Positions 11,867 to 31,333 are shown, numbered from the stretch's first letter. The stretch: 64,000 bases of DNA from an uncultured Gammaproteobacteria bacterium (GCA_964355955.1 CAYHFQ010000003.1:31777-95776), one strand, 5' to 3'. Notes: generated by a model not told the origin, from the letters alone. Made by a program: numbers and translations.

Positions 11867-11913
11867 GTTCTTCCTCTTGGTATGACGACGACCGGAATGG
11901 CCGACTCGGGAGA

Positions 11914-13655: not shown

Positions 13656-13658
13656 GCC

Positions 13659-14096: not shown

Positions 14097-14103
14097 ACTT
14101 TTT

Positions 14104-14131
14104 ACTTAAAAGCGGGACATGACTGCCCCGC
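14104..14131 (-). terminator. Terminator downstream of ftsA. On the minus strand it reads GCGGGGCAGTCATGTCCCGC followed by TTTTAAG.
   Basis: 8-bp GC-rich stem plus a U-run on the minus strand. Confidence 0.5.
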
Positions 14132-14143
14132 CTGATGTTTAAG

Positions 14144-14177
14144 GCCCCCTCCTAACTCCCCCATAGCTGGGGGAGAG
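14144..14177. repeat. 35-nt GC-rich palindromic element (E1), plus-strand form CCCCCTCCTAACTCCCCCATAGCTGGGGGAG. It is intergenic, immediately 3' of the ftsA stop.
   Basis: Near-identical copies at 18850, 30285 and 60268 and a degenerate copy at 17095. It contains the 8-bp hairpin CTCCCCCA/TGGGGGAG. Confidence 0.65.
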
Positions 14178-14184
14178 TTTTCGT

Positions 14185-15462: not shown

Positions 15463-15861
15463 TTATAACACGGATACCAGCCAGTCCTTCAATCTGGCTA
15501 AGACTGGCCAAATATATGGGACGAAGATGATCAGGCCGACGACGAGTGCGGAAACGGAGGTGAGTAAAACAGTGCCGGCCATCATATCTTTCACCTCACG
15601 AACCATGGGGTTGAGGCGTGGCTGGACGGCGTCGATGAGGCGCTCGACAATGCTGTTCATGACTTCAAGCACGAGGACAGCGGCGACGAGCAGGAGGATG
15701 AGGACGCGCTGAAGAGTAGAAAGTGGCAGGACGAGGCTCATGATAATAGCGAGGCCACCGAGGAGTAGCTGCACGCGGAAGCTGTGTTCGGCGTGGGCAA
15801 CTTCGCGGAGACCACGGAGGGCATGGCGCAGGCTACGAAAAAAGCGACGAGGAGAAAGCAT
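15463..15861 (-). CDS. dgkA: Diacylglycerol/undecaprenol kinase (DgkA family).
   Basis: 132 aa, 3 transmembrane segments, the EVMNSIVERLID (E-x-x-NSAIE-like) motif and FR-A-GL at the N-terminus. Confidence 0.75.
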   Translation of the reverse strand: MLSPRRFFRSLRHALRGLREVAHAEHSFRVQLLLGGLAIIMSLVLPLSTLQRVLILLLVAAVLVLEVMNSIVERLIDAVQPRLNPMVREVKDMMAGTVLLTSVSALVVGLIIFVPYIWPVLARLKDWLVSVL

Positions 15862-15867: not shown

Positions 15868-16299
15868 TTACAAAATTTTGGCGACAATGGCATCCTGCAG
15901 GGGGAACATCTCCTCAGCGTCGGCCGGTTCGATGTGGTCGTAACCCAAACAATGAAGAATGCCGTGGACCACAAGATCGGCACATTCGAGTTCGAGGTCG
16001 TTATCAGCGGCGTCGGCCTGACGAGTGGCTTGAGCGATGTCGATTAGGACGTCGCCGATTTCGCCAGATTGTTCCGGCATGCCAGAGGCGAAACTTAGGA
16101 CGTCGGTGATGGCGTCTTTGCTGCGATACATGCGGTTGAGGCGCTTGATTTCCTCGTCGGTGATGTAGTTGATGTTGACGACACCGTCCATCAGTCCGGG
16201 CAAGGCAGCGTTGACGGCGGCAGCAATAGCAAGGTAGCGCTCGGCACCAAGGCGAGCGTCCGCGGGGACCAGGTCGTCGTCGACTTCAAGAGTGATCAT
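15868..16299 (-). CDS. ybeY: rRNA maturation endoribonuclease YbeY.
   Basis: HGILHCLGYDH zinc-binding motif. Confidence 0.9.
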   Translation of the reverse strand: MITLEVDDDLVPADARLGAERYLAIAAAVNAALPGLMDGVVNINYITDEEIKRLNRMYRSKDAITDVLSFASGMPEQSGEIGDVLIDIAQATRQADAADNDLELECADLVVHGILHCLGYDHIEPADAEEMFPLQDAIVAKIL

Positions 16300-17357
16300 G
16301 GCTTAGCATTAAGGTGAAAACTGTTGACCATCATCTCAAAAGTCTGCAAATATTCGATTTGACTGCGAGTGCCAAGATCGTAGGTGAGGGTTATGACCGA
16401 CGTGGCGTTATCGAGGTAAGTAGTCCTGTCGTCCGCGGTAGTTAAACCGTAGAAGCCATCTTTGGTTAGGGATTCTTTAAGTTGCTTGGCATCGTTGCCA
16501 GGTTGTTGGGCGTTATACCAGTCGGCTAAAGATTGTGTGGCAACCTTGGCCGTAGTACCAACGCTGATACTAGCTTGACGGGAAGAACGGAAAGCAATGG
16601 AGGTGCTGTCGGCTGAAGGGACTGGCGTCCAAGTCGTCGGGTAAAAGATTGTGAAAGCGAAAGCGGCGTCCGAGAAGACCTTAACAGCGCCGGTGTCGAG
16701 CAAAGTTAAAGGAGCTAAGCCGAGAGGGTCATAGCCGTGGAAGACTTCGTTGCCATCTAAATAAGTGTCCTTGTCAGAATCTGGTTCGCGGAAGTTAGTG
16801 CCGTAAAGCAGTTCCTCGATGTCGGTGAGGCCATCACTGTCAGTATCTTTGGCAGGAACAGGAATAGCAGCTTGAGCAGCAGCGGCGGCGGCATCTTGAG
16901 CAGCCTTGGCGGCGGCTTCAGCGGCGCGCTGCACTTCCTGTTGTTTGAGTTGGTTGAGTTGAGACTCGGCTAACTGTTTTTGCTGTTTGGCGGAGTCGAT
17001 TAGGCGGTAAGCAGCGAAACCGCCAGCACCGAGCACGATGAGCATGACGAAGAAGGTGATGAGGGGGCCTTTCCAGCTGTGCTTACGCTTTCGAGCCTCC
17101 CCTAGCCCCTCCATAGCTGGAGAGGGACTTACGACAGTTGGTGGAGCGACCACGGGAGGAGGAGGAGGTGGTGGAATGGGTTCTGGGCGGGGGGCGGTGA
17201 CCCCGCCTATTACTTCGGGTGATAGGCTAGCTTCGACGCCGTAAAACTCCCGCGGCATGGTGTGAATCACCACGTCAGTTGGCCCAGTAGTAGCCTCGAC
17301 GGTAGACGGTGAGGCCGTCACTGTGGGGTTAGGAGTTTTAGGCTTGCTGCCGAACAT
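16296..17357 (-). CDS. Single-pass membrane protein with a Pro-rich N-terminus and a C-terminal thrombospondin-type-3-like calcium-binding repeat (DTDSDGLTDIEE...DSDKDTYLDGNE).
   Basis: ORF translation. Paralogous in architecture to the next two genes. Contains the degenerate 35-nt element at 17095. Confidence 0.5.
   Translation of the reverse strand: MFGSKPKTPNPTVTASPSTVEATTGPTDVVIHTMPREFYGVEASLSPEVIGGVTAPRPEPIPPPPPPPVVAPPTVVSPSPAMEGLGEARKRKHSWKGPLITFFVMLIVLGAGGFAAYRLIDSAKQQKQLAESQLNQLKQQEVQRAAEAAAKAAQDAAAAAAQAAIPVPAKDTDSDGLTDIEELLYGTNFREPDSDKDTYLDGNEVFHGYDPLGLAPLTLLDTGAVKVFSDAAFAFTIFYPTTWTPVPSADSTSIAFRSSRQASISVGTTAKVATQSLADWYNAQQPGNDAKQLKESLTKDGFYGLTTADDRTTYLDNATSVITLTYDLGTRSQIEYLQTFEMMVNSFHLNAKP
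17095..17130. repeat. Degenerate copy of the 35-nt GC-rich element (GCCTCCCCTAGCCCCTCCATAGCTGGAGAGGG) inside the 16296..17357 coding sequence, encoding SPSPAMEGLGEA.
   Basis: Alignment to E1-E4; the stem is partly eroded. Confidence 0.35.
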
Positions 17358-17372
17358 AGGCCTTAGTTAATC

Positions 17373-18017
17373 TTAGTTAGTGGGAATGGTGAAAAGTTTA
17401 CCTGGGCCGTTCGGGTTGTAACCACCGCTGACTTCCGCGCCGTCAGCATAGCCGTCGCCGTCGGTGTCTGCTTTGAGCGGGTCGGTGCCGTAAACTTTGA
17501 GTTCTTCCCTGTCGCCCAAACCGTCACCGTCAGTGTCTGGTTTGCTTGACGAGGTGCCGGCCGCGAGTTCTTCTGCGTTAGTGAGGCCGTCGCCGTCGCT
17601 GTCCAAGAAAGAGGCTTGGTTGGCTGGCGGGGTGGCAGGTTGGCTGGGTGGCGGGGTGGTAGCTGCTGGCTCGGTAACCGGTGGAGTGACAACAGAATCA
17701 CTTGGAACGCTCTGCACAACACCGCCAGTGTTGGCAGTTTGCGACATAATGCGCCAAGCAACGAAGGCGGCACCGCCGACTAAGACGATGACGACGACGA
17801 GGATGAGGACAGCTTTCAAGAGGTGACGGCTGCGTGGCGCAACGTAGGTTTCCATGACAGGCTCTGGCATCGGCCGGGCCGAAGGAGGTGACATGATCGG
17901 TGAGCCGTTACTAGGGCGAGATTGCGGAGTTGGCGAGGCGAGACCGTCAAACATATCCTCCACCGGCTTGGCAGGAGTTACTGGAGATTCAGGAGCTGCT
18001 GGCTGTTCGTCGAACAT
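17373..18017 (-). CDS. Single-pass membrane protein with C-terminal calcium-binding DxDxDG repeats (DSDGDGLTNAEE, DTDGDGLGDREE, DTDGDGYADGAE).
   Basis: ORF translation. Confidence 0.5.
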   Translation of the reverse strand: MFDEQPAAPESPVTPAKPVEDMFDGLASPTPQSRPSNGSPIMSPPSARPMPEPVMETYVAPRSRHLLKAVLILVVVIVLVGGAAFVAWRIMSQTANTGGVVQSVPSDSVVTPPVTEPAATTPPPSQPATPPANQASFLDSDGDGLTNAEELAAGTSSSKPDTDGDGLGDREELKVYGTDPLKADTDGDGYADGAEVSGGYNPNGPGKLFTIPTN

Positions 18018-18026
18018 AGGAAATAT

Positions 18027-18845
18027 TTATGGTTTGAGCGGATCGTGGCCGTTGGCGATCTCTACACTATCGTCGTAACCGTCGCCGTCCGTGTCCGCTT
18101 TTTGGTCGCTCGTGCCGTACTTGAATTCCTCAGCTAGGCTAAGGCCGTCATGGTCGGCGTCGATGGAAGTGAAGACGTCATGACAACTGGCGGCAAAGTC
18201 AGCGCTGAGAGTGTCGCAACCGGCTGGGTTACCGGCGGCAATGGCTGCTTCCAAGGCGGCCTGCTGGTCGCACTGATCTTCCGCGATGCCGTAAGTGCTA
18301 CAGGTACCAGCAGCTAGAATAGCCGGCAACATTTGAGCTTGGCAGCTGGCCTGACGTCTGGCTTCTTTGATGAGGTCACAAAGTTTGTAATCCTGAGCGT
18401 CGACCGCCAACAAGAAAGTGACCATGTCCTGACAGTTGCCTTTGACGTCGCCTGGCAAGGCGTCGCAAGTTTTAATCTCCTTGGTGTCGCGGGCGATGAG
18501 ATTGACGCAGTTGTTGTAGGCGGCGTCGGCTAGGCCTTCACAAGCGGTAGGGGCAGCGGCCTGACGAGCCAGATTGGACTGTGTTCGCTCGGCACAGGCG
18601 GCTGGATCCTTCTCCTGACTACAATCGGCGACTGCTTGATCAATGCGATCTTTAACGGACACGACCGAGCTTGGGACGGCGGAGTTAAGGGAATTGAGAA
18701 TGAAGATGACAATGAGAGCCACGACTGCCCCACCGACCACAATACCACCGCCGAGGAACAGCTGGTTACGGCGAACCTGGAACCACTTTTTAGGTGGTTC
18801 TGGCGGTAGGCCTGGGGTGAAGTATTGTGGCTCTAAAGTATTCAT
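18027..18845 (-). CDS. Single-pass membrane protein with a Cys-rich ectodomain and C-terminal DADHDGLSLAEE / DTDGDGYDDSVE repeats.
   Basis: ORF translation. GGAGG of element E2 lies 10 nt upstream of the ATG. Confidence 0.5.
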   Translation of the reverse strand: MNTLEPQYFTPGLPPEPPKKWFQVRRNQLFLGGGIVVGGAVVALIVIFILNSLNSAVPSSVVSVKDRIDQAVADCSQEKDPAACAERTQSNLARQAAAPTACEGLADAAYNNCVNLIARDTKEIKTCDALPGDVKGNCQDMVTFLLAVDAQDYKLCDLIKEARRQASCQAQMLPAILAAGTCSTYGIAEDQCDQQAALEAAIAAGNPAGCDTLSADFAASCHDVFTSIDADHDGLSLAEEFKYGTSDQKADTDGDGYDDSVEIANGHDPLKP

Positions 18846-18849
18846 AAAT

Positions 18850-18883
18850 GCCCCCTCCTAACTCCCCCATAACTGGGGGAGGG
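18850..18883. repeat. 35-nt GC-rich palindromic element (E2). It fills the 44-nt spacer between the giant-gene stop and the next start codon, and its AGGAGGGGG segment serves as the Shine-Dalgarno sequence.
   Basis: CCCCCTCCTAACTCCCCCATAACTGGGGGAGGG on the plus strand. The minus-strand sense is ...GGAGTTAGGAGGGGGCATTTATG. Confidence 0.65.
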
Positions 18884-18889
18884 TTTTAA

Positions 18890-21800
18890 TTACGGTGAAC
18901 AGTAGTTGAACTTGACGTTGCTGATGTTGACTTGGCCCTCGCCGGCGAAGGTGACGCGAAGTGGAAGAGTTTGTTCGGCGGACTGATCGCAGATGAAACC
19001 TTCTGGCCAAGGGATAGCCACACCGGTGCCCTCCATGACTGAACCCGAGGTAGTAGTGCCGCCGGAAGTGACGAGTGTAAAGGTAGGTTGAGTGATGGAG
19101 GCGACGATTGAGTTATAAGCGTCGGTGATGGCACTGGATGAGCTGCCGTGGTAGGCGTAGTCGATACTGGTGAGGTTGTTTGGCTGTGTTCTATCCACTG
19201 TGTAAATGGCGGGATCGTTACTCGACCAACCAGCAACCGTGCGGATGAAGCTGCTCGAGGTGGTCAAAGCGATGGTGTAGAGTTCGTAATCTGGAATATC
19301 ATCACCGTTCTCGTCGACGCCCTTAATAATATCGGCAGCGTCGGTCGTCGCGGCTGGATCATTGGCCTCGCCATCAGTCAAAAGGACAACTATTTTACGA
19401 GCATTAGTAACGGAACTTTGTGCATCAAGAAGGGTTTTAGCGGCATCAAGTCCTAGGTCCGTAGGCGTACCGCCATCGGCATCATAAAGATCGATATAGC
19501 CAGCGTATTCAGCCTCGGCAGTTGAGTCGGCGAAGGCTCTGGTAGTAACCTCTGTAACTTCCGTACAAGATGTATCTGTACTTAAGCAGCCACCTCGGTA
19601 TGTGACTAGCCCGACATGCATGTTATCTACGGAATAAAGTGCAGACAATGAGTTGGTCAGTCCCTCTTTAGCAGCATTCAACCGAGCAGATGAACCGTCT
19701 ACACGCCCATCGAAGCTCCAATTCATCGAGTTTGACAGATCCGTCACGAAAACGACGTAAACATCTGGTGCAGTCACGTTATCGAGCGAGACGTCCGCCG
19801 TGAGGGTAGCACCCAAGCGACAAGCTGGGAAGGTGATGGTAGCCGCGTTCGGAAGGTCGGAAGTGGTGCTGTCGGTGTAAGAGTAGAGGTCGACGCTGCT
19901 CGATGAGGCAGCACCTGGTTGGTTGTCGGTCATCAGCATGGCGTCGGAGAGATATGTTTCTGGGCAGGTGCTGTTACAGCTGCTGGCACAGACTGGGAAC
20001 TGACAGTCGTTGCTTGAACAGTCAGCATCCGAGAGACAAGCGACACCGAGGCCACGAGCGGTGTCTGTGCTGTCGCCGCCATTACATTGGCCGACGGTTT
20101 GGCAGACCTCGTTTTCGTTAGCAGTGCCATCGGAATTAAGATCAACCGAGAAACGCTGGCCGTTATAAGTACAAGAATTGGAACCGACTAGAGTATAGCT
20201 AGTACCGGTGCTCGTGGCGTCGTCCCATACTTGAATAGGGGAAGAATCAGAGACCAGGCGAATAGCTGGAACGTAGGAGTTTGGCAGATCGTAAGCGTCG
20301 CAGTACTCGTCGCCGTTCGCCACGCCGTCGCCGCAGAATTCACCAGAGAGGCTGGTGTACTTACAGCTGACGGAACAGGCGGTACAGGTGGATTCGTAAG
20401 CACTGGTACAGCCGGCGCCGTTGTTTACGCCCTCGTCACACTGCTCGGTTTCGAGTTCCAAGTAACCGTCGCCGCAGACGTTGGTTTTACACTGGTTGGT
20501 GCAGGTGTCGCCGGAGTCCGTGTTGCCGTCGTCACATTCTTCACCGGTATCGACCACGCCGTCGCCGCAGTTATTGAGAGCTTTGCAAGTAATGCCCTGG
20601 TAACCAGTAGCTGCATCCGTCCAGTTACAGGTGCCGCCGCTAGCCCCGTCGTCATCACAAACGCGAGTGCGGTAGGTTTGATAAGTGTTGTTTGAACAGG
20701 TGCCGCCAGCGCCACAGTCGTCATTAGTAGTACAGGCTTGGCCGACGAGGGTGGCGTCGTCGCTGAATTGGCAGACGGTGGAGACAGCACAGGCTCCAAA
20801 CGCCGGAGACTCCTCACCACCAGCGGTCAATCCACACTTTGGTCGCAAGCTCGTGCGGGATGATGAAGAGGTACCTGCCTCACATTGGCTGTCGGTCTCA
20901 CAAGCCTGGCCAGCCATGGTTCCTGATCTGTCGTTACAGATAGTGCCTTCATAAGAATCGAGGTCGCCATCACAGACTTCCCCGCTGTCGATAACGCCGT
21001 CGCCGCAGTAAGAAGCTGGACCTTGGCAGTCCCAGGCACAGGTGTTGTTCGGGTCAAATTCGTAATCACCATTAACGTAGCTGGCGCTCGTGGTACCGCC
21101 GCAGACATAGTCGACACCGCCAGTAGGACGAGCATATGTGGTGGTAGTCGAGCCACAGTCGCAAACTTCCCCACCGGCCAGGCTGCCGTCGCCGCAGTAG
21201 AAGGCGTCAACCGTAAGTGAGCAACTGGAGCCGCAGTAACCGTAACGTCCGTTCAATGAGCCGTCGTCGCAAGTTTCGCCGAGTGAGGTGTCGGTGACAC
21301 CGTCGCCGCAAGAGGAGACGACGCAGGTGGCCGAGGAGTCCGCGATGAAGGCGGAACAGGTGCTGTCGCAAACTTGAGATTGGATACCATTAGCATCGTC
21401 ATCGACCACGCCGTTAAGATCTGAATCGACCGTCAAGTCGGTATCGCAAGTGGCAGTGTCGCCACCGCGCTGACCGATTTCGCAGGCTTCCCCACCATTA
21501 ACAACGCCGTCGCCGCAGTTGCCGGTGCTGCCGTAAACGGTGGCGCCGTCGCAGAAGACTGCAGTAGTGAAGCCTTCAGCAGTACTGAGCGGGCTCGAGA
21601 CTTGGTACGTTACGGCGTCGTCGGTTGCTGTGTCGTAGTCGTAGTACCAACCAGCGGCTGCGTATTCGAGGTCAGCGTAAAGAGTGTAACTAGCGCTGCC
21701 GCCAGCTTTGTAGTGATAAACATGGCTGCCAGCTGGACAGATGTACTGGCCGTTGGCTTGGTTGACGCAAGTTGCAGAGTCGTAACTAGCTAGAGGATCT

Positions 21801-24800
21801 GCACCACAGCCGAGGAAGGCGTTGAGCGGATCCGCCAGCAATGAAGAATCACCAAGAGCGCCACCGAGCAAGTCCGTCCAAGAACCCCAGACGCTGGCAC
21901 CGAGGCCACGAACGAAGGTGCCAGAAGCGAGAGTCGGTACGTCGGAAGTGGCGTAAGTAGAGCTATAAGTGCTGACTTCGCTGCTGATAGTACGGAGATC
22001 GGACAAGCGCTTGACGTCGCGGGTAAGTTTGATTTTGTTGTTGGCACAAGTTTCGCCAGTGGCACAGTCGGCGTCTGAGGTACAAGATTTAGCCGTGTAG
22101 GCGGAACCGTCGGAACAGAGGGCGACATCGCTGACGTTGACGGCAAAGGAGAGGTTAGCGAGGAGCTGATCGTAAATAGCTTTGGTACTTTCGCTGGCAC
22201 CATCGTTGTAGGAGATGACGTAAATGTTGGGGTAGAGGGTGCTGCCACTCTCGTTAACGGCAGCGATGTAGGTGGTGCGGCCGTCTTGCACAGCCTGGAA
22301 ACCGTCCACGGTAGTAACAGATGGGCTACCCGAGAAACCCTGAGCTGTGAACCAAGCAGCTGGACTCAGGTAGTCGGAGTTGGTGACGACGCGGTAACCA
22401 ATGGCGTCGCCGCTGCCGTCGTCCACCTTGAACAAGTATTCTTTGAGAATGTTATCCGTGATGGAGTAGTCGGCGGCATTTTGGACGGTGAGGGCTGCGT
22501 AGTCGTCGGAGGTATCTTGAGCCACACCAGCGTCGCGGCAGTAGAAGTCTGAGAAGTTCATCCAGCCAGCCGAACCAAGCACGGCACCTTCTGCCAGGCT
22601 GGCGTCATCACTCCACGGGAAGGTGGCAGTCTTGATGTCTGGCCAAGTGTTTTCGCAGAGGAAGGCGATGACTTGATTGGTACCAGCCACGGCGGTGCCC
22701 TCAGAAGTACCAAATTGATCGTAATCGATGGTAGCGGTGGCAAGTACGTTAGCGTCACCGTTCTCACCAACGGCGGCGACCACTGCGGTGTCGGCGGTAT
22801 CAGCAGTTGAACCACCTGCAGTAGTGACGATGGTAGCATTCATGTCTTCTGCCCAAGCCCAGTTCCAGGAATAGACGCCGGAAAGAGATTCGATCGGCTC
22901 GCTCGTGGTGCCGTTATGGGTGTAAGCGGTGGCAGTGAAGTCGTGGCTTTCAGTAGCTTGTGAGAAGTAGCTTGGGCTCTCGGTATCACCGTCGGTTACT
23001 GACACACTATCCAAAGTACAAATTTCGGTACCAGTCGTGAAGTCCTGCCAAGCAAAACCGGCTGGGTTGAACATGGCGACGTCGTTGCTTGAGTGGACGC
23101 CTGGACGGGAGGAGTCGGTGACGTCGGCGTCGGTGATTACTTCCAATGTATAGCGAGCGTTGGCGAGCAACGGAATGTCATAGTGCATGACAACTTTGTA
23201 GTTGGTGACGCCCAAAACGTCGACAGCCTCCTGTGAGAACGAAGTGACCGGGACCACACAGTCGTTAGCGGCAGCTTCGGCGGAACGACCGGTGAATATT
23301 TGACGTACAGAAAGCCAGCCACGGGAATACCAGGCCAAGTGCGAGGTAGCGGCGATAGCTAAACGGGTATGGTCGGCCGGACAGATGTGATCTGGAACTG
23401 AACCTAAGTTGAGTTTAGCAAACATGAGAGGTTGAGCAGTGCCGCCTTCTGGTGTCGACAAGAAAGAGGCTAAGTCCATCTCTGTAGTAAAGAGGCCAGA
23501 AATTTCGGCATTGCGACAAACGTTGCGACCAGTTGGGTGCAAGGTGACGGTTGGGCGGGCCATGCAGCAGTTATTGACGCCAATGCCGACCACTTCCGGG
23601 AGTTCACAGTCGCTGTCTTGCAAAGCAGAACAGACGAGGGTGTAGGTGGAAGGGGTGAGTTCGGTTGAAATACCAGACTGAGGTTCGGTAACGTACATGC
23701 TAGCCACGGCTAAGTTGGTGTCGGGGTCGACTTCTTGAGCAGCCTGGAGGCCGATGGCTGCCAATTGCATGTCGTCGACGTTACTGTCGCCAGAGGAGGC
23801 TTCACAACCAGGGTACTCGCCCTGACCGGTGACGCCGTCGCCGCAGAAGGAAGGAATAGTGTAATCGGTAGAAGAACCAAGGTATGACGTGGCAGCTTCG
23901 GTCAAACAAGTAGCCGAACAGCCGTCACCATCCACACTGTTACCGTCGTCGCAAGTTTCGTAGAAAGGAGTAATAGTAAGGTCGCCGCAACTGGCACCGC
24001 CAATATCCGCTGAGCTAACAGAACCTTCACTCAGACATAATGAAGAACAGCCGTCGCCGTTGGCTACGTTGCCGTCGTCGCAGTCCTCGCCACCGATGGT
24101 GGTCTCGAAAGCGCGGTCATGGTTGCCGCAAGTCGCGTTAACTGAGCGCGAACCCTCGTTCAAACAAGTAGCGGAACAACCGTCGCCACTGCGCGTGTTG
24201 CCGTCGTCGCAGTCTTCGCCAGAATGATCGCCTGCTTGGTCTTGGCGACCATTGCCGCAAAGTGGAGCCCAAGTTGGACCACCGTCGCCACCCTCGCGCA
24301 AACAAGAAGCGGAACAACCGTCGCCGTCGTTAGTGTTGCCGTCTTCACATTCTTCACCGTAGCTGTTGCCAGCCCCGTCACCGATTCTACCGTCGCCACA
24401 AATGGCCGCGTACGGTTGGCTGCCGCCTGGGATACAAAGTGAAGTACAGCCAGCGGTAATACCGCTCTTGTCGGTGTCGACCTGAGCATTTGGCAACCAA
24501 CTAGCAACTTCGATCGAGCTGTTACTGCCGTCGTCGGTCCAGTCGGCAAAGCTCCAGTCGAAACCAGTGGTGGCGAGAAGCTGGCCCGAGGTGGAACAAG
24601 CGTCCATTTCACCGTAAGCGGAAACAGTGAAGTTTTGACGCTCACCAACGGTGTTGGCAGTGGCGGCTTCTGGAGAAACAGCTAAGCGATTAACAGCACA
24701 GACGTCAGTCCCCTCCTTAACGCCAAAGGTCCAGGAATAGTCACCGGTGTAATTGGTGCGGGTGAGAGCGACGCCGCTCGGAGTCGTGACGTCACCGGAG

Positions 24801-27800
24801 ATAACGACGCGATAGAATTTGCCTGGGACGAGATAGGTAGTGGCTGGCAAAACGAGATCGACCTGCTGACAATGAGTAGGAGCATCACTGGCGCAATTAG
24901 CGGCCGTGACTGTGTAGTCTGAGAATTCATCGCCGACGCCGACACTGCATAGTTCGTTAGGACAGGTATAGAGTTTAACTGCACCAGGCGCAACTAAGCT
25001 GACGGCGTCCATATCCGTGTTGAAGCTGGCACCGATTAGACCGTTACGGCAAGCCTCATTACAGCTCGGCCAAAAATCTGCGACGTAAGGATCAGTAAAG
25101 TTAATGGTAAGGACAGCGTTACCCTCAACGGCGCTGGCTCGCTCCTCTGCGGTCACGTCCGTGGTACCTTCAGCGTTGGCTTGAACGAGAGTGCAGCTAG
25201 AATTACCACCAGCGCAAACAGGGTCAGTGCTCGAGGTGAGGCCAGCGATACTATCGTCCACCGTCCAGTCGTAAACGTATTGAGTAGCGTCGAGAACTAC
25301 GCAAGCGTCGCTTGGTAAAGCGTTAAAGATATCGGTATCACCCTCCGCGTCGATGGTAGAAGTAGCTGGCGAAACTGAGACGTTGTTGACGGCACAGGCA
25401 GCACCAGTGCTCGAGACAGTGAAATGCCAAGAGGCGTTGGCAGCCATAGCAATGCCGCCAGGTGAGGAGATGGCAGCCGTGCTGACGGTGACTTTGTAGC
25501 TAGTGGCCGTGAGGAAAGGAGTGTTTGGAATCCAGGTGAAGGTAGTTGGTGAGGAGTCAGAAACCGTGAGGACACCGTCGGCCGTGATATCGGTGCCGCC
25601 AGTACAGGCGTCGCTATTACACTTTTCAATCTTCACAGCATCGTCGATCGTGCCGCGGTTCATGAGTTCTGTGAATTCGGCGTAAACTACGGCCTGTGGA
25701 CAGACTTCTGTAGTGAACGTGGAGTTTGGTACGGCACTGATGCGACCGCCGGCGGCTAAGTCACACTCGGTGACGATGGCTGGCGTGGTTGGAATGGTAC
25801 CAGTTGAGAAATACCACTGGTAAGCGGCTGGGCCAGGAGGATTGGTGGTATCAGTAGTTGAGTCACCGTAAGTGAAGTTGAGCGTGTTACTGGCGACACC
25901 TGAGGCCGAAAGAACCTGAACCGGACCAGAAGTGGCGCCACCTGGGGCCGTGACAGTTATCGTGGTGCTGTTCCAGGTACTCGTCAAGGTAGCTGGAATG
26001 CCGCTGAAGAAATTGACTGTACCGGTGGTAGAGCCGAGACTGCCAGTAATGGTGATAGTGTCCCCCGCCGCGCCAGTGTCTGGCGAGATGGAACAGATGC
26101 CAGGGCTAGGTGCGTTTGAGGTGATAGTAAAATCCGTGAGCGCTGAGGTGGCAGAATTTTGAGCGACGAGATAGATAGCGAAGTTGCTACCAGCGACGAC
26201 TGGGTCGCCGTTTTGGTAGTTAGCTGGCACGATGACCGTGACTTGAGTGTCTGACCAGTAATCAGAACAAGCGGCTGGGAAGCTGACGTCGGCCAAGGCC
26301 TTGTAACCGGAGTCTTTATTTTCGAAGAAAACCTGACCAATGTCGGCACCGAAGTTACTGCCTGTGAGCGTAATGTAGTCGCCGATAGCGGCTGAGGATG
26401 GGCTGATGCTGGCGATTGTCGGGACGGTGGTGACGGCGGTGGCCAGGCTGTAGAGAATAGTATTAGAGGCAACACCGTCGACCGTTACGCCAACCGCATA
26501 ACTGCCGTCACGAGCAGCAGGAGCGGTGACGTTGAGCGAAGTGTCGCTCCAACCGCTGTATGAACTAGCGGCGTTAGTACCGAAAGAGACAGTTGAGGTG
26601 CCCTGCGTGTCACCGAAATCGAGACCAGACAGCACGACCGCGTCGGTTGGTGCACCAGAAGTCGGTAAAAGTGAGCAAAGTTTAGGGTGGATGACATCGT
26701 TAACTACGAAGTCGTCGAAAATCTGACCGTAATCGTCGTTGCTTGAATCACTGAGTGGAGTTGTGCCGCCAGTGGTAATGGTAATTGGACCAGTCACAGC
26801 ACCGTCTGGGACCATGACGACTACGCCGGTCGACGACCAGGTAGCACAAGATGGGATAAGCGCAACGACCGTGCCGCCATCCGCCGCAGTGAAAGTTACA
26901 GTTGGCTGAACTGAGCCGAAGCCGATGCCGGCGATAGTAACAAAAGTACCAACCGCACCAGAGAGCGGTGAAATATCCGTAATTTCTGGTAATTCTGTAC
27001 AGATACCGTCGAGGCAGCTAGAGCTTGGGCCGCAGTCGGCGTCCGTGGTACAGGTGCTGCCAGTGCAAGCACCGCAATAATCTAGGCTGGTGCTATCACC
27101 GCCACAGTTGAGACCGGTTTCGCCGTGACTGGTATCAATTTCCGTATTAAAGCACCAAGGTCCACGCGCTGTAACGTGGATAGTGTCGTCGCTCGTGTTG
27201 CCGGCGATATCGGTGACGGTGGTGGCTAGTTTGTAGCTGGTTGAGTTGACCAAAGCTGTGGTATCCCAGTTGGTGGCAATAGTAGTATCGGCAAGATTGT
27301 CACCGCTCGCGCCAACTGAGTCGAACTGAACGTCTTCCGCGCTAAAACTAGCGTCGGCGACCTGGCTGTCGTCCGTGGCGTGGACCTGAACGAGAGCGGA
27401 AGAACCAGATTCAACGCTGCCGCTCGGGATAGTGATAACGGCGGTTGGGTTAGCAACGTCGACTAAGCTGCCAGTGGTAAAGGAAGATGTACAACTAGTG
27501 GTAGTACAAACAAGAGCATTACCGGTGGTACTCTTAATGGCGGTCGTAGTGGTGACGTTGTAAGTGGTGCCGTCTGGAGCGTCGTAGTCAAAGCAGTAAC
27601 GTGTTTCGTTAGGTGTTGGACAAGCAGCGTTAGGACGGAAGCTGGCGGCGTTGCCGCTAACAGTAATGGTACCGTCGACAATAGCGCCACTCGCGGCGTT
27701 GGTGACTACGAGGTTGCCGTTGAGGGTGGCGGCATCGAGATTTTTGGAGAAAGTAACGCGGAGTAAGATATTGCGGATGGCGACTGGGCCGTCAGGCGAG

Positions 27801-28273
27801 AAATCAGTGACTGTAAATGAAGAGGTGCTGCTGCTACCGCCGAATCCCCCACCACCGCTGCCATTGTCGCCAGTATTACCGCCGCCAGCACCCGTGGCGC
27901 TAATAAGAGCGGAGAGGATGAAGCTGGCAATGGCGAATGAAAGTAAGATGATGGCGAGACCGATGACACCGCGGATCAGAATTTTCTTGGCGCGTTCTAA
28001 CTTTTCTTCGTTGCCAGCGGCGGTCATCCAGGTGAAGCCACCGTAAAGAACAATGAGAACCGAGAGGATGCCGAGAACGCCAATGACGACGCGGATAATG
28101 CGAGCGATGATGATTTTTGGATCCTCCGCCGTGAGGCCAGAGGCAGCGCCGACGTTGGCCAAGCTGTCAGTTACCTGTGCTAGCAGGTGTGGGGTGTGCA
28201 AAAATACGCCAGCCGCAATGAGGCCAAGGACAGAAGGGAGAACGTATTTAAGGCGGAACCAACGCATAGCCAA
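18890..28273 (-). CDS. Giant (3127 aa) cell-surface protein. It has an N-terminal signal/two-helix membrane anchor, beta-rich Ig-like regions, many Myxococcus-type cysteine-rich repeats (CGDGxxxxGExCDDGNxxxGDGCSxxC) and a C-terminal von Willebrand factor A domain (DLSNSM MIDAS motif).
   Basis: Single uninterrupted 9.4 kb ORF. Repeats include ICGDGRIGDGAGNSYGEECEDGNTNDGDGCSASC and NCGDGVVDTGEECDDGNTDSGDTC. The C-terminus has VYVVFVTDLSNSMNW...VVLLTDGEAND. Confidence 0.8.
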   Translation of the reverse strand: MAMRWFRLKYVLPSVLGLIAAGVFLHTPHLLAQVTDSLANVGAASGLTAEDPKIIIARIIRVVIGVLGILSVLIVLYGGFTWMTAAGNEEKLERAKKILIRGVIGLAIILLSFAIASFILSALISATGAGGGNTGDNGSGGGGFGGSSSTSSFTVTDFSPDGPVAIRNILLRVTFSKNLDAATLNGNLVVTNAASGAIVDGTITVSGNAASFRPNAACPTPNETRYCFDYDAPDGTTYNVTTTTAIKSTTGNALVCTTTSCTSSFTTGSLVDVANPTAVITIPSGSVESGSSALVQVHATDDSQVADASFSAEDVQFDSVGASGDNLADTTIATNWDTTALVNSTSYKLATTVTDIAGNTSDDTIHVTARGPWCFNTEIDTSHGETGLNCGGDSTSLDYCGACTGSTCTTDADCGPSSSCLDGICTELPEITDISPLSGAVGTFVTIAGIGFGSVQPTVTFTAADGGTVVALIPSCATWSSTGVVVMVPDGAVTGPITITTGGTTPLSDSSNDDYGQIFDDFVVNDVIHPKLCSLLPTSGAPTDAVVLSGLDFGDTQGTSTVSFGTNAASSYSGWSDTSLNVTAPAARDGSYAVGVTVDGVASNTILYSLATAVTTVPTIASISPSSAAIGDYITLTGSNFGADIGQVFFENKDSGYKALADVSFPAACSDYWSDTQVTVIVPANYQNGDPVVAGSNFAIYLVAQNSATSALTDFTITSNAPSPGICSISPDTGAAGDTITITGSLGSTTGTVNFFSGIPATLTSTWNSTTITVTAPGGATSGPVQVLSASGVASNTLNFTYGDSTTDTTNPPGPAAYQWYFSTGTIPTTPAIVTECDLAAGGRISAVPNSTFTTEVCPQAVVYAEFTELMNRGTIDDAVKIEKCNSDACTGGTDITADGVLTVSDSSPTTFTWIPNTPFLTATSYKVTVSTAAISSPGGIAMAANASWHFTVSSTGAACAVNNVSVSPATSTIDAEGDTDIFNALPSDACVVLDATQYVYDWTVDDSIAGLTSSTDPVCAGGNSSCTLVQANAEGTTDVTAEERASAVEGNAVLTINFTDPYVADFWPSCNEACRNGLIGASFNTDMDAVSLVAPGAVKLYTCPNELCSVGVGDEFSDYTVTAANCASDAPTHCQQVDLVLPATTYLVPGKFYRVVISGDVTTPSGVALTRTNYTGDYSWTFGVKEGTDVCAVNRLAVSPEAATANTVGERQNFTVSAYGEMDACSTSGQLLATTGFDWSFADWTDDGSNSSIEVASWLPNAQVDTDKSGITAGCTSLCIPGGSQPYAAICGDGRIGDGAGNSYGEECEDGNTNDGDGCSASCLREGGDGGPTWAPLCGNGRQDQAGDHSGEDCDDGNTRSGDGCSATCLNEGSRSVNATCGNHDRAFETTIGGEDCDDGNVANGDGCSSLCLSEGSVSSADIGGASCGDLTITPFYETCDDGNSVDGDGCSATCLTEAATSYLGSSTDYTIPSFCGDGVTGQGEYPGCEASSGDSNVDDMQLAAIGLQAAQEVDPDTNLAVASMYVTEPQSGISTELTPSTYTLVCSALQDSDCELPEVVGIGVNNCCMARPTVTLHPTGRNVCRNAEISGLFTTEMDLASFLSTPEGGTAQPLMFAKLNLGSVPDHICPADHTRLAIAATSHLAWYSRGWLSVRQIFTGRSAEAAANDCVVPVTSFSQEAVDVLGVTNYKVVMHYDIPLLANARYTLEVITDADVTDSSRPGVHSSNDVAMFNPAGFAWQDFTTGTEICTLDSVSVTDGDTESPSYFSQATESHDFTATAYTHNGTTSEPIESLSGVYSWNWAWAEDMNATIVTTAGGSTADTADTAVVAAVGENGDANVLATATIDYDQFGTSEGTAVAGTNQVIAFLCENTWPDIKTATFPWSDDASLAEGAVLGSAGWMNFSDFYCRDAGVAQDTSDDYAALTVQNAADYSITDNILKEYLFKVDDGSGDAIGYRVVTNSDYLSPAAWFTAQGFSGSPSVTTVDGFQAVQDGRTTYIAAVNESGSTLYPNIYVISYNDGASESTKAIYDQLLANLSFAVNVSDVALCSDGSAYTAKSCTSDADCATGETCANNKIKLTRDVKRLSDLRTISSEVSTYSSTYATSDVPTLASGTFVRGLGASVWGSWTDLLGGALGDSSLLADPLNAFLGCGADPLASYDSATCVNQANGQYICPAGSHVYHYKAGGSASYTLYADLEYAAAGWYYDYDTATDDAVTYQVSSPLSTAEGFTTAVFCDGATVYGSTGNCGDGVVNGGEACEIGQRGGDTATCDTDLTVDSDLNGVVDDDANGIQSQVCDSTCSAFIADSSATCVVSSCGDGVTDTSLGETCDDGSLNGRYGYCGSSCSLTVDAFYCGDGSLAGGEVCDCGSTTTTYARPTGGVDYVCGGTTSASYVNGDYEFDPNNTCAWDCQGPASYCGDGVIDSGEVCDGDLDSYEGTICNDRSGTMAGQACETDSQCEAGTSSSSRTSLRPKCGLTAGGEESPAFGACAVSTVCQFSDDATLVGQACTTNDDCGAGGTCSNNTYQTYRTRVCDDDGASGGTCNWTDAATGYQGITCKALNNCGDGVVDTGEECDDGNTDSGDTCTNQCKTNVCGDGYLELETEQCDEGVNNGAGCTSAYESTCTACSVSCKYTSLSGEFCGDGVANGDEYCDAYDLPNSYVPAIRLVSDSSPIQVWDDATSTGTSYTLVGSNSCTYNGQRFSVDLNSDGTANENEVCQTVGQCNGGDSTDTARGLGVACLSDADCSSNDCQFPVCASSCNSTCPETYLSDAMLMTDNQPGAASSSSVDLYSYTDSTTSDLPNAATITFPACRLGATLTADVSLDNVTAPDVYVVFVTDLSNSMNWSFDGRVDGSSARLNAAKEGLTNSLSALYSVDNMHVGLVTYRGGCLSTDTSCTEVTEVTTRAFADSTAEAEYAGYIDLYDADGGTPTDLGLDAAKTLLDAQSSVTNARKIVVLLTDGEANDPAATTDAADIIKGVDENGDDIPDYELYTIALTTSSSFIRTVAGWSSNDPAIYTVDRTQPNNLTSIDYAYHGSSSSAITDAYNSIVASITQPTFTLVTSGGTTTSGSVMEGTGVAIPWPEGFICDQSAEQTLPLRVTFAGEGQVNISNVKFNYCSP

Positions 28274-28276
28274 AAA

Positions 28277-30190
28277 CTAAGGTGAAAGAGGCAAGAGGTC
28301 GCAAGTCTCGGACCGAGCTTCGCCGTTACAACAAGATGGATTGTCGACGCTAACCTGACAGCAGGCAGAAGTTGGGTCGTTGGGATTACAGGTACCGCTC
28401 GTGGCGTCTGGCCCGTTAGCAGGGACGTAACAGTTCTGGTACTGATTTTCGATACCCTGGCTAGCCAAGACGCCGTAGAGATAGGTCTTGCCCTCGGTCG
28501 AGGCGAGGAAGGTGCCGTGGCCGATGGAAGTTTGGGTGTGGAGCGTGGCTTGGTTAACTGGATCTGTGACTTCGGCGCCGCTTAAGTCGATGCCCACACT
28601 GCGCGGTAAGAACCACATTTCGTGGCTACCGCCGGTCGAAGTTTCTTTGTTGCTCATGCTGACGTTAGCACTGGTTAGTGACAGGGTGCGCATGATATCC
28701 CAGAAAGTGATGGTAACAGTTTGATCGAGCGCCTGGTCCTCGCCGAGAATGCTAGGCGAAATGTTCATGATGGTTGGGCCGACTAGGTTAATGTCGCCCG
28801 AGGTTGAGAAGGTCCAGTCTGGGAAGTCGTCGCCAGCCGTGCCGTCCTGGTTACCGTCTAAGCTGTTCGAGGCAGCGTCGACGATACCATCGTAGTTTGG
28901 TGGAAGGTTGTCAGCTTGTGGTGGGCTGGCCGTAGTGGTAGCGGCGGCAATGCGGAGCGTAATGTCGTCGTTAGCCGGCAAACAGTAAATAGTGGAGCCG
29001 CAAGAGTTGGTGCCGCAATCGTCAGTCGAAGTGAAGGTAATAGTTTTGTAGCCGTTGCTGATTTGGTAGGTACCGGCTTGAGCCGTGCTAGTAGCCCCGC
29101 TCACAGTTTGGATGTTAGAGAAGCCGCTAGTGGCGGTGCGGGTACCGGTGGAAGAGGTTGGGTCGATAGCCTCGTTGAAGGTGACTTCCACGGAAATGTT
29201 GCGGTCGAAGGTTTGATTTTGCGCTGGGACCACGGCCACGACGTGCGGTGGAGTTAAGTCGATAGTGGTGCCAACGGTGAAGGACCATTCGTAACCGCCT
29301 GAATAAACACCGGTGAAGGCGTCCTGGCTATCTGCTGTTTTGATGGCAGTGTTGAGCGAGATCGTATAGAGCGTGTCAGCAGCGGCCGAACCGAGGTAGC
29401 CTTGTGGGACGAAGGTAAAGGTAGTGAGGTCGTCGGTGAAGTAAACGTCGACATCGGTGCGAACTACCTCGAGACCGGTATCAGGGTCGACGGAGGAAAT
29501 GGCGACCATGGTGCTATTAATGAGAGTGCCGCTGGCAACATCGTCGCTGAGATCGGTGCCAGTACCGCTCGTGTTGTAGTCCGCAATAAAGGAAGGGATG
29601 TCCATTGGCTCGGCGAAAGTGACCATGACGTGCGTGTTGCGAGCGATGTCGACAGCGTTGCGTTCTGGGTAATGGTCGCGGAGAATGCCGGCACCGAGAG
29701 AACCGGACAAGACTTCCACGGACACGACACCGTTACTCGAGGTGTTACTGCCAGATCCAGAGCCTGCGCCGAGGGCGTTTAAAATGAAGGTAGCGATACC
29801 GTAAGCGCCGAGAACGATGATGATACCGATAGTGCCATTGATGAGTGTACTTTTGGCGCGTTTGATTTTATCCTCACTGCCGCCGGCGGTCATCCAGAGG
29901 ACGCCAGCGTAGATGATGAGAATAAGGAACACGACGCCAAGCACACCGAGCACGACCGAAATAATAGTGCCGATGATGGTCAAGAGATCCGTGTTCGCAA
30001 AGCCGGCTGTGGCGCCGACACTGGTCAACGCTGCCGTTGAATCTTGAGCTAAGGCGAAGTGCGGATGAGCAACCGCAAAGGCTGCCAGTGCGGCAGCGAA
30101 GGTGGTGAATGATGCGACTCGTTTCAAGATAGAAGAATAGACCACAGGAAAGATGCAAACTGCAGAACCAATGCTCACAGTATACAACAT
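28277..30190 (-). CDS. Large (637 aa) surface protein whose N-terminal anchor is shared with the giant protein downstream (LWMTAGGSEDKIKRAKSTLINGTIGIIIVLG versus FTWMTAAGNEEKLERAKKILIRGVIGLAIILL).
   Basis: ORF translation. The stop is 3 nt from the giant-gene start, indicating an operon. Confidence 0.7.
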   Translation of the reverse strand: MLYTVSIGSAVCIFPVVYSSILKRVASFTTFAAALAAFAVAHPHFALAQDSTAALTSVGATAGFANTDLLTIIGTIISVVLGVLGVVFLILIIYAGVLWMTAGGSEDKIKRAKSTLINGTIGIIIVLGAYGIATFILNALGAGSGSGSNTSSNGVVSVEVLSGSLGAGILRDHYPERNAVDIARNTHVMVTFAEPMDIPSFIADYNTSGTGTDLSDDVASGTLINSTMVAISSVDPDTGLEVVRTDVDVYFTDDLTTFTFVPQGYLGSAAADTLYTISLNTAIKTADSQDAFTGVYSGGYEWSFTVGTTIDLTPPHVVAVVPAQNQTFDRNISVEVTFNEAIDPTSSTGTRTATSGFSNIQTVSGATSTAQAGTYQISNGYKTITFTSTDDCGTNSCGSTIYCLPANDDITLRIAAATTTASPPQADNLPPNYDGIVDAASNSLDGNQDGTAGDDFPDWTFSTSGDINLVGPTIMNISPSILGEDQALDQTVTITFWDIMRTLSLTSANVSMSNKETSTGGSHEMWFLPRSVGIDLSGAEVTDPVNQATLHTQTSIGHGTFLASTEGKTYLYGVLASQGIENQYQNCYVPANGPDATSGTCNPNDPTSACCQVSVDNPSCCNGEARSETCDLLPLSP

Positions 30191-30208: not shown

Positions 30209-31333
30209 CTAGGTTGTGGAGAACATTTTAGCGATGGCGGTTTTTAGTTCTATCAGGCCTGTTTTGGCGTGTGCGGAAACTACAACGCCCCCTCTAACTC
30301 CCCCATAGCTGGGGGAGGACGTACTCAAAAGTTTTTTGATGGTGGCCGGCTTCTTGATGGCGTCGATTTTATTGTAAACGATGAGACGTGGATGGTCCGC
30401 GATATTCAACTGCTGCAGCACATCATCGACCACCGCCATCTTAGCAACGTACTTGGGATCAGCCACGTCGACGACCTGCAAAAGTAAATCGGCGTTAGCG
30501 GCTTCGGAGAGCGTGCTGTGAAAAGCGCGGATGAGCTGGGGTGGGAGGCCGGCGATGAAGCCGATGGTGTCCGAGAGTAAAATAGTCTCGTTAAGTTCAG
30601 GAATATAAACGTCGGCCACGCGCGTGTCGAGGGTGGCGAAGAGCTTATCCGCGGCGTATTCCTGGCGTTTACCGAGCGCATTTAAGAGCGACGTCTTGCC
30701 GGCGTTGGTATAGCCGACCAAGGCGACGGTTTTCTTTTCTTGGCGTCGACGATGCTGTTGGTGCTGGTCGCGCACGCTTTGGCACTTCTCGAGCTTCTGC
30801 AAAATCTGCTTTTCCTGCTCGCGTAAGTGGCGCTTCATCGCTTCCGTGTTGCCTTCCCCACTACCGCCGACTGTACCACGACCACCGCGTTGACGGCCGA
30901 GTTCCGCACCCATGTTGAAAATACGGGGGCCCATGTGACGCAAACGGGCTAGTTCGATTTCCAGCTTGGCCTCGCTCGTTTTAGCATGTTTGTCGAAAAT
31001 GTTGAGAATGAGGTCGATGCGATCCCAGACCTGTATTTTGGCACCACGAAGCAGCTCTTCGAGATTGAAAATTTGTTGCGGCTTTAAGACTTCGTTAATG
31101 ATGAGCAAATCGGCACCGAGCAACTTGCCTTCTGCCACAATCTCCTCCACCTTGCCGCTGCCGATGTAGGTGCGATTGTCGGGCTTAGCGCGACGCTGGA
31201 CGGTTCGGACGACGGCTACTCCCCCGTACGTCTTCGTCAATTCCTCGAGCTCAGCGAGACGCTCTAAAGCCTCGGCCTTCGGCACGGTGTAATGAACGAG
31301 GTCGGCGAGAATGGCGCGGCGAAGTGTGGGCAT
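30209..31333 (-). CDS. hflX: GTPase HflX.
   Basis: HflX N-domain plus G-domain (VALVGYTNAGKTSLLNAL, DTIGF, NKID). The C-terminal region carries the in-frame 35-nt element (SSPSYGGVRGG). Confidence 0.9.
   Translation of the reverse strand: MPTLRRAILADLVHYTVPKAEALERLAELEELTKTYGGVAVVRTVQRRAKPDNRTYIGSGKVEEIVAEGKLLGADLLIINEVLKPQQIFNLEELLRGAKIQVWDRIDLILNIFDKHAKTSEAKLEIELARLRHMGPRIFNMGAELGRQRGGRGTVGGSGEGNTEAMKRHLREQEKQILQKLEKCQSVRDQHQQHRRRQEKKTVALVGYTNAGKTSLLNALGKRQEYAADKLFATLDTRVADVYIPELNETILLSDTIGFIAGLPPQLIRAFHSTLSEAANADLLLQVVDVADPKYVAKMAVVDDVLQQLNIADHPRLIVYNKIDAIKKPATIKKLLSTSSPSYGGVRGGVVVSAHAKTGLIELKTAIAKMFSTT
30285..30318. repeat. 35-nt GC-rich palindromic element (E3) inserted in-frame in hflX, encoding SSPSYGGVRGGV.
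   Basis: The minus-sense sequence TCCTCCCCCAGCTATGGGGGAGTTAGAGGGGGCGTT translates to S S P S Y G G V R G G V. Nucleotide sequence is near-identical to E1, E2 and E4. Confidence 0.6.

Follow-up and report, generated by a model that had tools for sequence, protein, structure and literature searches.

The Patescibacteria are mostly uncultivated bacteria that live attached to other cells. Their type IV secretion system (T4SS) is otherwise of the Gram-positive type, and VirB2-like pilins are a known peculiarity of it (PMC10633639, PMC12102498, PMC12857230). In Southlakia, the one Patescibacteria system tested, these pilins are encoded in the T4SS cluster, and both the T4SS and the pilins proved essential (PMC10633639). 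Among 1,948 Patescibacteria assemblies with VirB2-like pilins, the pilin gene lies near virB4 in 1,135 and is not adjacent to it in 813, and no PrgB-like adhesin was found in that 2025 survey of Patescibacteria T4SS (PMC12102498). Our own literature search found no paper on pilin moieties fused to large ectodomains. In this study, we analysed a stretch of 64,000 nucleotides (hereafter, the window) deposited under the name of an uncultured Gammaproteobacteria bacterium (GCA_964355955.1, CAYHFQ010000003.1:31777-95776). The source organism is an ultra-small Patescibacteria bacterium whose relatives are named Candidatus Uhrbacteria, a group placed in the GTDB class ABY1 in Table S1 of PMC12102498. 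The window contains a block of five genes, designated A to E, in which A and B each join a VirB2-type pilin hairpin to a large ectodomain. In A and B, one large uncultivated clade has concrete candidates for its contact apparatus, with a possible link to the Patescibacteria T4SS pilins.

Genes A to E are open reading frames (ORFs) of the same direction that fill the space between hflX and ybeY-dgkA-ftsA. Coordinates refer to the whole 64-kb window throughout, and protein families were called by Pfam and NCBIfam profile matches. The block and its immediate neighbours are as follows.

hflX: 30209..31333, minus strand, GTPase (Pfam GTP-bdg_N/GTP-bdg_M/MMR_HSR1), upstream neighbour of A
Gene A: 28277..30190, minus strand, 637 aa, modular VirB2-type pilin (ORF; Pfam T4SS_pilin and Big_5)
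Gene B: 18890..28267, minus strand, giant modular VirB2-type pilin, 3,125 aa (from ATG 28267; TTG 28273 gives 3,127 aa)
Gene C: 18027..18845, minus strand, 272 aa, single-pass membrane protein with TSP3 repeats
Gene D: 17373..18017, minus strand, 214 aa, single-pass membrane protein with TSP3 repeats
Gene E: 16296..17357, minus strand, 353 aa, single-pass membrane protein with one TSP3 repeat
ybeY: 15868..16299, minus strand (Pfam), 4-nt overlap with E
dgkA: 15463..15861, minus strand (Pfam)
ftsA: 14185..15441, minus strand (Pfam)

A first-pass annotation, made by a model from the DNA alone, had already placed the five ORFs on the minus strand, co-oriented with hflX upstream and ybeY, dgkA and ftsA downstream, and the ORF calls and Pfam matches bear this out. 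The packing is tight and operon-like, as that annotation held, and the gaps range from -4 to 44 nt: hflX-A 18, A-B 3, B-C 44, C-D 9 and D-E 15 nt, followed by the 4-nt overlap of E with ybeY, 6 nt between ybeY and dgkA, and 21 nt between dgkA and ftsA. B had been given as 3,127 aa. An ORF of that length does exist from the TTG at 28273, but the start is most likely the ATG two codons further on, at 28267, because gene callers use it and a 90%-identical ortholog (P0385) begins MRWFRL. The 9.4-kb frame is sound, as the exact 3,125-aa product is recorded in three sources (NCBI, Logan and ENA), a repeat scan found no tandem DNA repeats in B, and full-length orthologs are collinear with it.

The N-terminal modules of A and B are 48% identical over 107 aa (E 1e-19 by pairwise comparison), while the two proteins are unrelated elsewhere; a window-wide search found the motif of the module in no other window protein. 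The first-pass annotation had regarded the module as distinctive and had recommended comparison with VirB2-like anchors. The comparison was well chosen, since the module corresponds to PF18895 (T4SS_pilin), but the module is for that very reason not distinctive: it is an existing Pfam family, and a profile built from it matched 62,716 cluster representatives (E <= 1e-3) in a set of 1.84 billion proteins. Against the PF18895 cut-off of 26.6 bits, A scored 29.8 bits as a whole protein and 35.4 bits as the module alone, and the module of B scored 25.2 bits, slightly below the cut-off. PF18895 matched 16 of 16 family modules tested, whereas TrbC/VirB2 (PF04956) gave sub-threshold matches only (about 20 versus 27.9 bits) in 4 of the 16, and the match to the mycoplasma integrative and conjugative element (ICE) pilin-like family NF045849 was below its cut-off. 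VirB2/TrbC pilins are small proteins of little more than the pilin domain, and A (637 aa) and B (3,125 aa) depart from this with their large C-terminal ectodomains. When solved-structure sequences were searched with the A-family profile and the N-module profile, no VirB2 or other relative was found; matches to 'Pizza' and KcsA were judged spurious.

The module consists, in order, of a long signal peptide, a short outside segment, a helix, a basic loop, a second helix and a Gly/Ser linker. The conserved domain thus reaches well beyond the signal peptide, so that the N-terminus is more than an ordinary export signal. In the two proteins it occupies the following segments.

A residues 1-145: 29756..30190, minus strand, signal peptide and hairpin (AlphaFold2 secondary structure, PF18895)
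B residues 1-135: 27869..28273, minus strand, signal peptide and pilin hairpin, then Gly/Ser-rich linker (identity to the module of A)

In the AlphaFold2 (AF2) model of A, the signal-peptide helix spans residues 19-41 and the hairpin residues 69-100 and 106-143. The inter-helix loop of A reads W-M-T-A-G-G-x-E-x-K-x-K-R-A-K and is K/R-rich across the family alignment, in which an A-x-A|Q site near A residues 46-49 is also kept; cleavage is predicted there. Eleven columns of the module family are invariant, and stand-alone Patescibacteria pilins of ~125 aa keep 9-11 of these 11. The module of A is 48% identical to one such pilin and 50% identical to the module of B. Because the stand-alone pilins share the invariant positions and match the module of A as closely as B does, the hairpin of A and B is, judged from these alignments, an intact pilin moiety and not a relic or a degenerate anchor.

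Among the best 150 of the 62,716 family matches, stand-alone, tandem and fused forms stand side by side: 24 are stand-alone pilins of 106-156 aa, 98 carry 2-17 tandem modules, 16 carry a single module in 487-1,546 aa (many resemble A, at ~550-613 aa), 7 are B-like giants of 3,018-3,271 aa, and 5 are proteins of 225-389 aa. More than half of the single-module proteins in these best 150 (28 of 52) are longer than 200 aa. For stand-alone pilins close to the A/B module, the genomic context is limited to contigs of 0.9-3.2 kb. The tandem-module proteins are metagenomic (P0242, P0244, P0247 and others) and hold 2 to 17 pilin hairpins per chain, one of them 17 in 1,775 aa; by their sequences, such chains are covalently concatenated 'polypilins'.

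Beyond the module, the ectodomain of A gave a Big_5 score of 47 bits with two Big_5 matches in Pfam. The AF2 model, computed from 48 homologues (pLDDT 81, pTM 0.71), contains a disordered Gly/Ser linker at residues 143-162, followed by about three Ig-like beta domains and a Cys-rich tail.

A residues 163-637: 28280..29704, minus strand, about three Ig-like (Big_5-type) domains and Cys tail (AF2, Foldseek)

The conserved cysteines of the tail (C587, C611, C620, C621 and C630) occupy invariant columns. Foldseek searches with the model returned LdtMt2 and the S-layer proteins Sap and SbsC through their tandem Ig domains (E 1e-9 to 1e-6); these are generic tandem-Ig matches with low TM-scores. More than 400 full-length homologues of A (45-91% identity) were found in assemblies named Uhrbacteria, Parcubacteria or Patescibacteria; all carry PF13205 and nearly all PF18895, and the domains are auto-annotated in public databases, for example by JGI as 'Type IV secretion system pilin/Bacterial Ig-like domain'.

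In B, the pilin hairpin is followed by Big_5-type and IPT/TIG Ig-like domains, a first Cys cluster, a middle region with no family assignment, a second Cys cluster, a VWA domain and a C-terminal beta domain.

B residues ~425-800: 25874..27001, minus strand, IPT/TIG Ig-like run (profile of B 142-801; TIG precomputed for orthologs)
B residues ~1289-1500: 23774..24409, minus strand, first Cys-rich acidic repeat cluster, CGDG...E-x-CDDGN...DGCS (hidden Markov model [HMM] and regular expression)
B residues ~1929-2044: 22142..22489, minus strand, alpha/beta domain, possibly PsbP-like, tentative (model, Foldseek, hhalign)
B residues ~2250-2700: 20174..21526, minus strand, second Cys-rich repeat cluster (regular expression and HMM)
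B residues 2840-2984: 19322..19756, minus strand, VWA with MIDAS, then C-terminal beta domain to 3127 (Pfam VWA/VWA_2)

More than ten Myxococcus-type Cys-rich repeats and a C-terminal vWA domain had been proposed for B, and both were found: 11 CG[DN][GH] repeat starts by regular expression, TIGR02232 at 122 bits, DUF4215 at 45 bits, VWA at 32 bits and VWA_2 at 31.3 bits. The MIDAS motif D-L-S-N-S lies at residues 2845-2849, and three orthologs show no change in the D, S, S, T and D columns of the metal site. DxSxS is kept in the other VWA-bearing orthologs examined except P0359 (DTGFS), in which the second MIDAS serine is lost; in ortholog P0337 a different C-terminal domain replaces the VWA. 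Judged from the architecture, this domain may bind a ligand on another cell or surface. The profile of B 142-801 retrieved only PF01833 IPT/TIG proteins of ~1,150 aa or less and no orthologs, and the search with the middle fragment was dominated by low-complexity words and gave 1 match. Within the model of the central region, residues ~1929-2044 are the best part (pLDDT 73-89), and this low-confidence model matched PsbP and BT_1490 at a Foldseek E of ~1e-3. The C-terminal domain of the E family aligned with the same part of B by hhalign (probability 56%, E 1.2e-4), and BLASTP found no similarity between the E C-terminal domain and the B central domain. As a hint only, the E domain (16299-16700) and B ~1929-2044 may be homologous, both with weak PsbP-like signals.

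Other kinds of surface protein were considered for A and B and rejected. A and B are not modular pilins of the type IV pilus (T4P) class, as the N-termini of A and B are Sec-type with A-x-A|Q and lack the class III signal peptide (G|F/M-T-L-x-E); no T4P pilin family appeared in the Pfam or NCBIfam output for A and B. An RTX/BIg adhesin of the type I secretion system (T1SS) was dismissed for B given the N-terminal Sec signal, the lack of an RTX match and the absence of tandem DNA repeats. Nor are A and B sortase-anchored LPXTG proteins: B ends NISNVKFNYCSP and A ends CDLLPLSP, and neither has a C-terminal hydrophobic segment.

Genes C, D and E each encode a single transmembrane (TM) helix preceded by basic residues, and because of these residues an N-in/C-out topology is predicted, which indicates that the TSP3 repeats are extracellular. 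C has its TM helix at residues 27-62, an ectodomain with 12 Cys invariant across the ortholog alignment, and 2 TSP3 repeats at its end. D has a Pro-rich cytoplasmic tail, a TM helix at 61-93, 3 TSP3 repeats and the conserved end GGYNPNGxGKLF. E has one TSP3 repeat and then a conserved ~140-aa C-terminal domain ending IEYLQTFxMMVNSF. The earlier statement that all three proteins end in TSP3-type repeats accordingly does not hold for E. Scores for TSP3_bac (PF18884) were above the cut-off for D (68.6 bits, 3 repeats), borderline for C (24.0 versus 25 bits) and sub-threshold for E (15.1 bits); the D-x-D-x-D-G...E columns are invariant across orthologs of all three. The three proteins had been called paralogous, which we could not uphold: by sequence they are three distinct conserved families whose resemblance is limited to the TSP3 repeats and the single-pass build. 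Cytoplasmic motifs are kept in distant orthologs of D (MFDxQ and EDMF, window 17830-18017) and E (V-I-H-x-M-P-K-E-F, window 17250-17357), which suggests that the tails of D and E, encoded just upstream of ftsA, contact some cytoplasmic partner.

Conservation of the block was examined in loci around A homologues and in loci from a scan of species-representative genomes; B orthologs were taken from both and from a search of cluster representatives. The genome scan used patterns from the Cys-rich repeat, and ~65 of its 80 loci were unrelated DUF4215 proteins (Myxococcota and other phyla), so that only L005-L017 were used. The order A-B-C-D-E-ybeY-dgkA-ftsA was found in at least nine other species-level genomes (L005, L006, L008, L009, L012-L016); L017 holds a variant of the A-to-ftsA block, and L001-L004, L010 and L011 are partial loci. 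Across these loci, FtsA identity to the window spans 100% to 45%. In every locus that extends far enough (13 loci), A directly precedes B, and each of these 13 contains exactly two pilin modules. Of the 13 loci extending to A, seven have hflX upstream of it (L001-L006, L015), yqeY takes its place in L013 and L016, and one or both of these genes are upstream in most syntenic loci; ftsZ follows in seven loci.

B orthologs are 3,018-3,271 aa long and align to the window B in every 100-aa block, and every B ortholog examined has the pilin module. Their length and domain order are near constant across genomes with FtsA identities of only 45-70%. The best-conserved parts of B are the pilin module, the IPT region, the Cys-rich clusters and residues 1900-2200, with the first Cys-rich cluster ahead of all others (0.53-0.64 identity in distant orthologs). 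Variation is greatest in the VWA and C-terminal region (0.19-0.45 versus ~0.4-0.6 elsewhere), as expected for a ligand-contacting end. Because the same five genes stand in the same order beside division genes in related species, the block appears to be a core, vertically inherited apparatus and not an ordinary variable adhesin; its conservation pattern points to a constrained stalk with an adaptable head.

In two loci, L010 (4215-11827) and L016 (2550-12451), the reading frame of B is split, which may reflect a frameshift or a sequencing error. The Patescibacteria-type block is also carried by third party annotation (TPA) metagenome-assembled genomes (MAGs) titled 'uncultured Gammaproteobacteria bacterium' (L006, L009, L010, L011 and L013). 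FtsA in L006, L009 and L013 is 67-71% identical to that of the window, and L010 and L011 stop before ftsA. The Gammaproteobacteria labels of these five MAGs are probably wrong.

These combined data are consistent with A to E being an attachment module on the cell surface, passed on vertically within a Patescibacteria clade, with A and B anchored in the membrane by their hairpins; we put the probability of this reading at roughly 0.5. A surface location and an adhesin-like build, as first proposed, agree with the Sec signal and membrane hairpin of A and B and with their Ig-like, IPT, Cys-rich and VWA (DxSxS) domains. A and B would leave the cell through Sec, with their long signal peptides cut at the conserved A-x-A|Q, and the VirB2/TrbC-type hairpin would then keep them in the cytoplasmic membrane. 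The predicted topology places the N-terminus outside, followed by helix 1, the cytoplasmic basic loop, helix 2 and an outside C-terminus, so that the ectodomains would be displayed beyond the flexible Gly/Ser linker. A would show a short arm of about three Ig-like domains, and B a ~3,000-residue stalk composed of Ig-like/IPT modules and disulfide-rich ones, which at full extension would be on the order of 100 nm long (our own estimate, at ~4 nm per ~100-residue module). At the end of the B stalk, the metal-dependent (MIDAS) VWA head would bind a ligand on the host or partner cell and thereby mediate attachment. C, D and E would probably provide a Ca-stabilised membrane platform on which A and B are held or organised in one complex, and the conserved tails of D and E may couple this platform to the cytoplasm.

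That the hairpin would act as an anchor rather than as part of a pilus is argued from the surroundings. Neither VirB4, VirB6 nor a coupling protein was found among the 30 window ORFs scanned outside A-E (every ORF of at least 219 aa, with 16 ORFs of 150-218 aa left out), no unassigned ORF of VirB4 size is present in the 64-kb window, and no further pilin module lies within ~10 kb of the block in any syntenic locus. The conserved partners of A-E are housekeeping and division genes, and no T4SS gene was found within ~10 kb in 10 or more relatives. Even so, several points weigh against the membrane-anchored attachment module. The retention of 9-11 of the 11 invariant positions, together with an identity of A to a stand-alone pilin equal to that of A to B, argues for a conserved pilin-type interaction over mere hydrophobic anchoring. 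Table S1 of PMC12102498 lists VirB4 in most Patescibacteria, so that a T4SS may be encoded elsewhere in the genome. In addition, the central region of B is poorly modelled (mean pLDDT 52), the stalk gave no enzymatic or toxin match, and ~40% of it has no Pfam assignment.

Some of these points would fit the main alternative, which we consider possible but less likely: A and B would leave the membrane and enter, as bulky tip or base subunits, a T4SS pilus whose genes lie elsewhere in the genome. The pilus would thereby gain the Ig-like arm of A and the giant VWA adhesin B. The intact hairpin, the coexistence of stand-alone, tandem and fused family members, the essential Southlakia cluster and the 813 assemblies with the pilin gene away from virB4 are all compatible with this alternative, and the reported lack of a PrgB-like adhesin leaves an adhesin role free. 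VirB2 and F-pilin have both termini on the periplasmic side of the membrane, which becomes the outer pilus face, leaving a C-terminal graft exposed. A and B, as neighbouring modular pilins, would also parallel PilB and PilC (10.1101/2022.08.25.505150). On the other hand, a pilus has been demonstrated for no Patescibacteria T4SS, a graft of ~3,000 residues far exceeds any known modular pilin, and VirB4 is missing in one of the two Uhrbacteria rows read in Table S1 (PMC12102498), which MAG incompleteness could explain. We likewise hold only tentatively the broader proposal that the VirB2 hairpin is a general N-terminal carrier for Patescibacteria surface proteins, with A and B built into or docked onto a T4SS pilus. 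B keeps its length and domain order constant, which suggests a geometric constraint. Together with the conserved position of the block directly upstream of ybeY-dgkA-ftsA(-ftsZ), the likeness of the A Ig-like domains to the S-layer proteins Sap, SbsC and EA1, and the D and E motifs that could contact cytoplasmic partners, this might speak for a structural envelope element, an S-layer-like coat or a spacer or scaffold tied to growth or division with no cell-binding role. We consider this improbable: the S-layer likeness comes from generic Ig matches, a conserved distal MIDAS VWA more variable than its stalk points to ligand binding, a single membrane-tethered chain of 3,125 aa is unlike known lattice-forming S-layer proteins, and gene neighbourhood by itself is no proof of a functional link to FtsA. 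The adhesin-like domains, and the frequency of giant adhesins among host-associated bacteria, would speak for a typical giant adhesin, accessory, variable and repeat-expanding. An ordinary, fast-evolving and horizontally mobile adhesin locus of this kind, with the N-terminus a mere signal or anchor, or a 9.4-kb ORF arising from misassembly, is nevertheless contradicted by the gene-for-gene synteny, the collinear B orthologs across distant species, the absence of tandem repeats and the identical product in three sources; the GC content of the block (0.54-0.57) also lies within the range of the window (0.43-0.59), the N-module is a conserved domain, and we regard this explanation as very improbable indeed.

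Elsewhere in the window lie further housekeeping and division genes, among them hisS, yqeY, ftsZ, der, dprA, topA, relA/spoT, parAB and genes of the cytidine-deaminase and LytR families. Promoter and terminator scans gave signals no better than chance, and an Rfam scan found four tRNAs only, none within the A-E region. A 20-nt palindrome, CTCCCCCATA[GA]CTGGGGGAG, has four copies in the window compared with 0 expected from shuffles.

Palindrome copies: 14156-14175, 18862-18881, 30298-30317 and 60283-60302, no strand assigned (motif search of window)

The copy at 18862-18881 lies after the B stop in the 44-nt B-C gap, where the hairpin is followed by GGAGG, the ribosome-binding site of C. On the coding strand, the copies after the ftsA stop and after the B stop run on as TTAGGAGGGGGC. 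The third copy lies inside hflX and, as deduced from its position, matches the hflX peptide SPSYGGVRGG near the C-terminus. The palindrome looks like a mini-element of the REP (repetitive extragenic palindrome) or MITE (miniature inverted-repeat transposable element) kind, or a regulatory hairpin.

The window ftsZ (6939-8273) is ~6 kb from ftsA, and the stretch between them (8274-14184) is the GC-richest part of the window (0.58-0.59), with a NUDIX gene and several ORFs without a family match. In most relatives (L008, L009, L013-L017), ftsZ lies within ~200 nt after ftsA; the stretch could be an insertion. parA and parB lie within 50820-52535, and the origin region may be near them. A 370-aa ORF at 2214-3326 gave a sub-threshold match to the Ig-like Big_13 and may encode another surface protein.

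The component domains of A to E are already known. What appear to be new and so far undescribed are the five-gene module, the giant modular pilin of constant length and its fixed place beside division genes; this place beside ftsA/ftsZ suggests that production of the apparatus belongs to the basic cell cycle. If the hairpin is a common carrier of surface domains, 'pilin' matches in these genomes need rereading. If A and B are part of a T4SS pilus, a giant VWA adhesin at the pilus tip would determine how far this monoderm T4SS reaches and how specific its host contact is. It would be the first modular pilin-adhesin of the VirB2 family, and would supply the adhesin that has been reported missing from Patescibacteria T4SS.

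Among described systems, the VirB2-like Patescibacteria pilins (PF18895; the Southlakia epibionticum array, PMC10633639; PMC12102498) belong to the same family as A and B and share the long signal peptide, the two-helix hairpin and the W-M-T-A-G-G...K-A-K loop. The described pilins, however, are small, often come in arrays of 2-11 genes and are frequently encoded beside virB4, whereas A and B carry ectodomains of 500 and 3,000 aa within a housekeeping and division gene string and never adjoin T4SS genes in the loci examined. PilB (vWA module) and PilC (lectin module) of Streptococcus sanguinis, type IV pilins modelled at the pilus tip (10.1101/2022.08.25.505150), are the closest functional precedent. 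As in A and B, the adhesive module, including a vWA/MIDAS, is grafted on the pilin C-terminus and the two genes lie side by side; PilB and PilC differ in belonging to another pilin superfamily with a class III signal peptide, one N-terminal helix and assembly by the T4P machine, and the B graft is about ten times larger than their modules. Giant T1SS adhesins such as SiiE (PMC6272769) and LapA likewise project an adhesive end on long Ig-like chains with Ca2+ involved, but they have a C-terminal T1SS signal, many near-identical tandem repeats, variable length and diderm hosts, in contrast to the N-terminal Sec signal and pilin hairpin, non-repetitive domain order and conserved length of B. Finally, the myxobacterial proteins CglD, MtsC and MtsD (NF033765, NF047638 and NF047639) and the TIGR02232 repeat use the same building blocks, TSP3, VWA and Cys-rich acidic repeats. 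The matches to these families cover repeats only and are far under the cut-offs (for example, 33.7 versus 400 bits); by sequence the likeness is one of domain sharing and not of orthology, and the envelope and the mode of anchoring differ.

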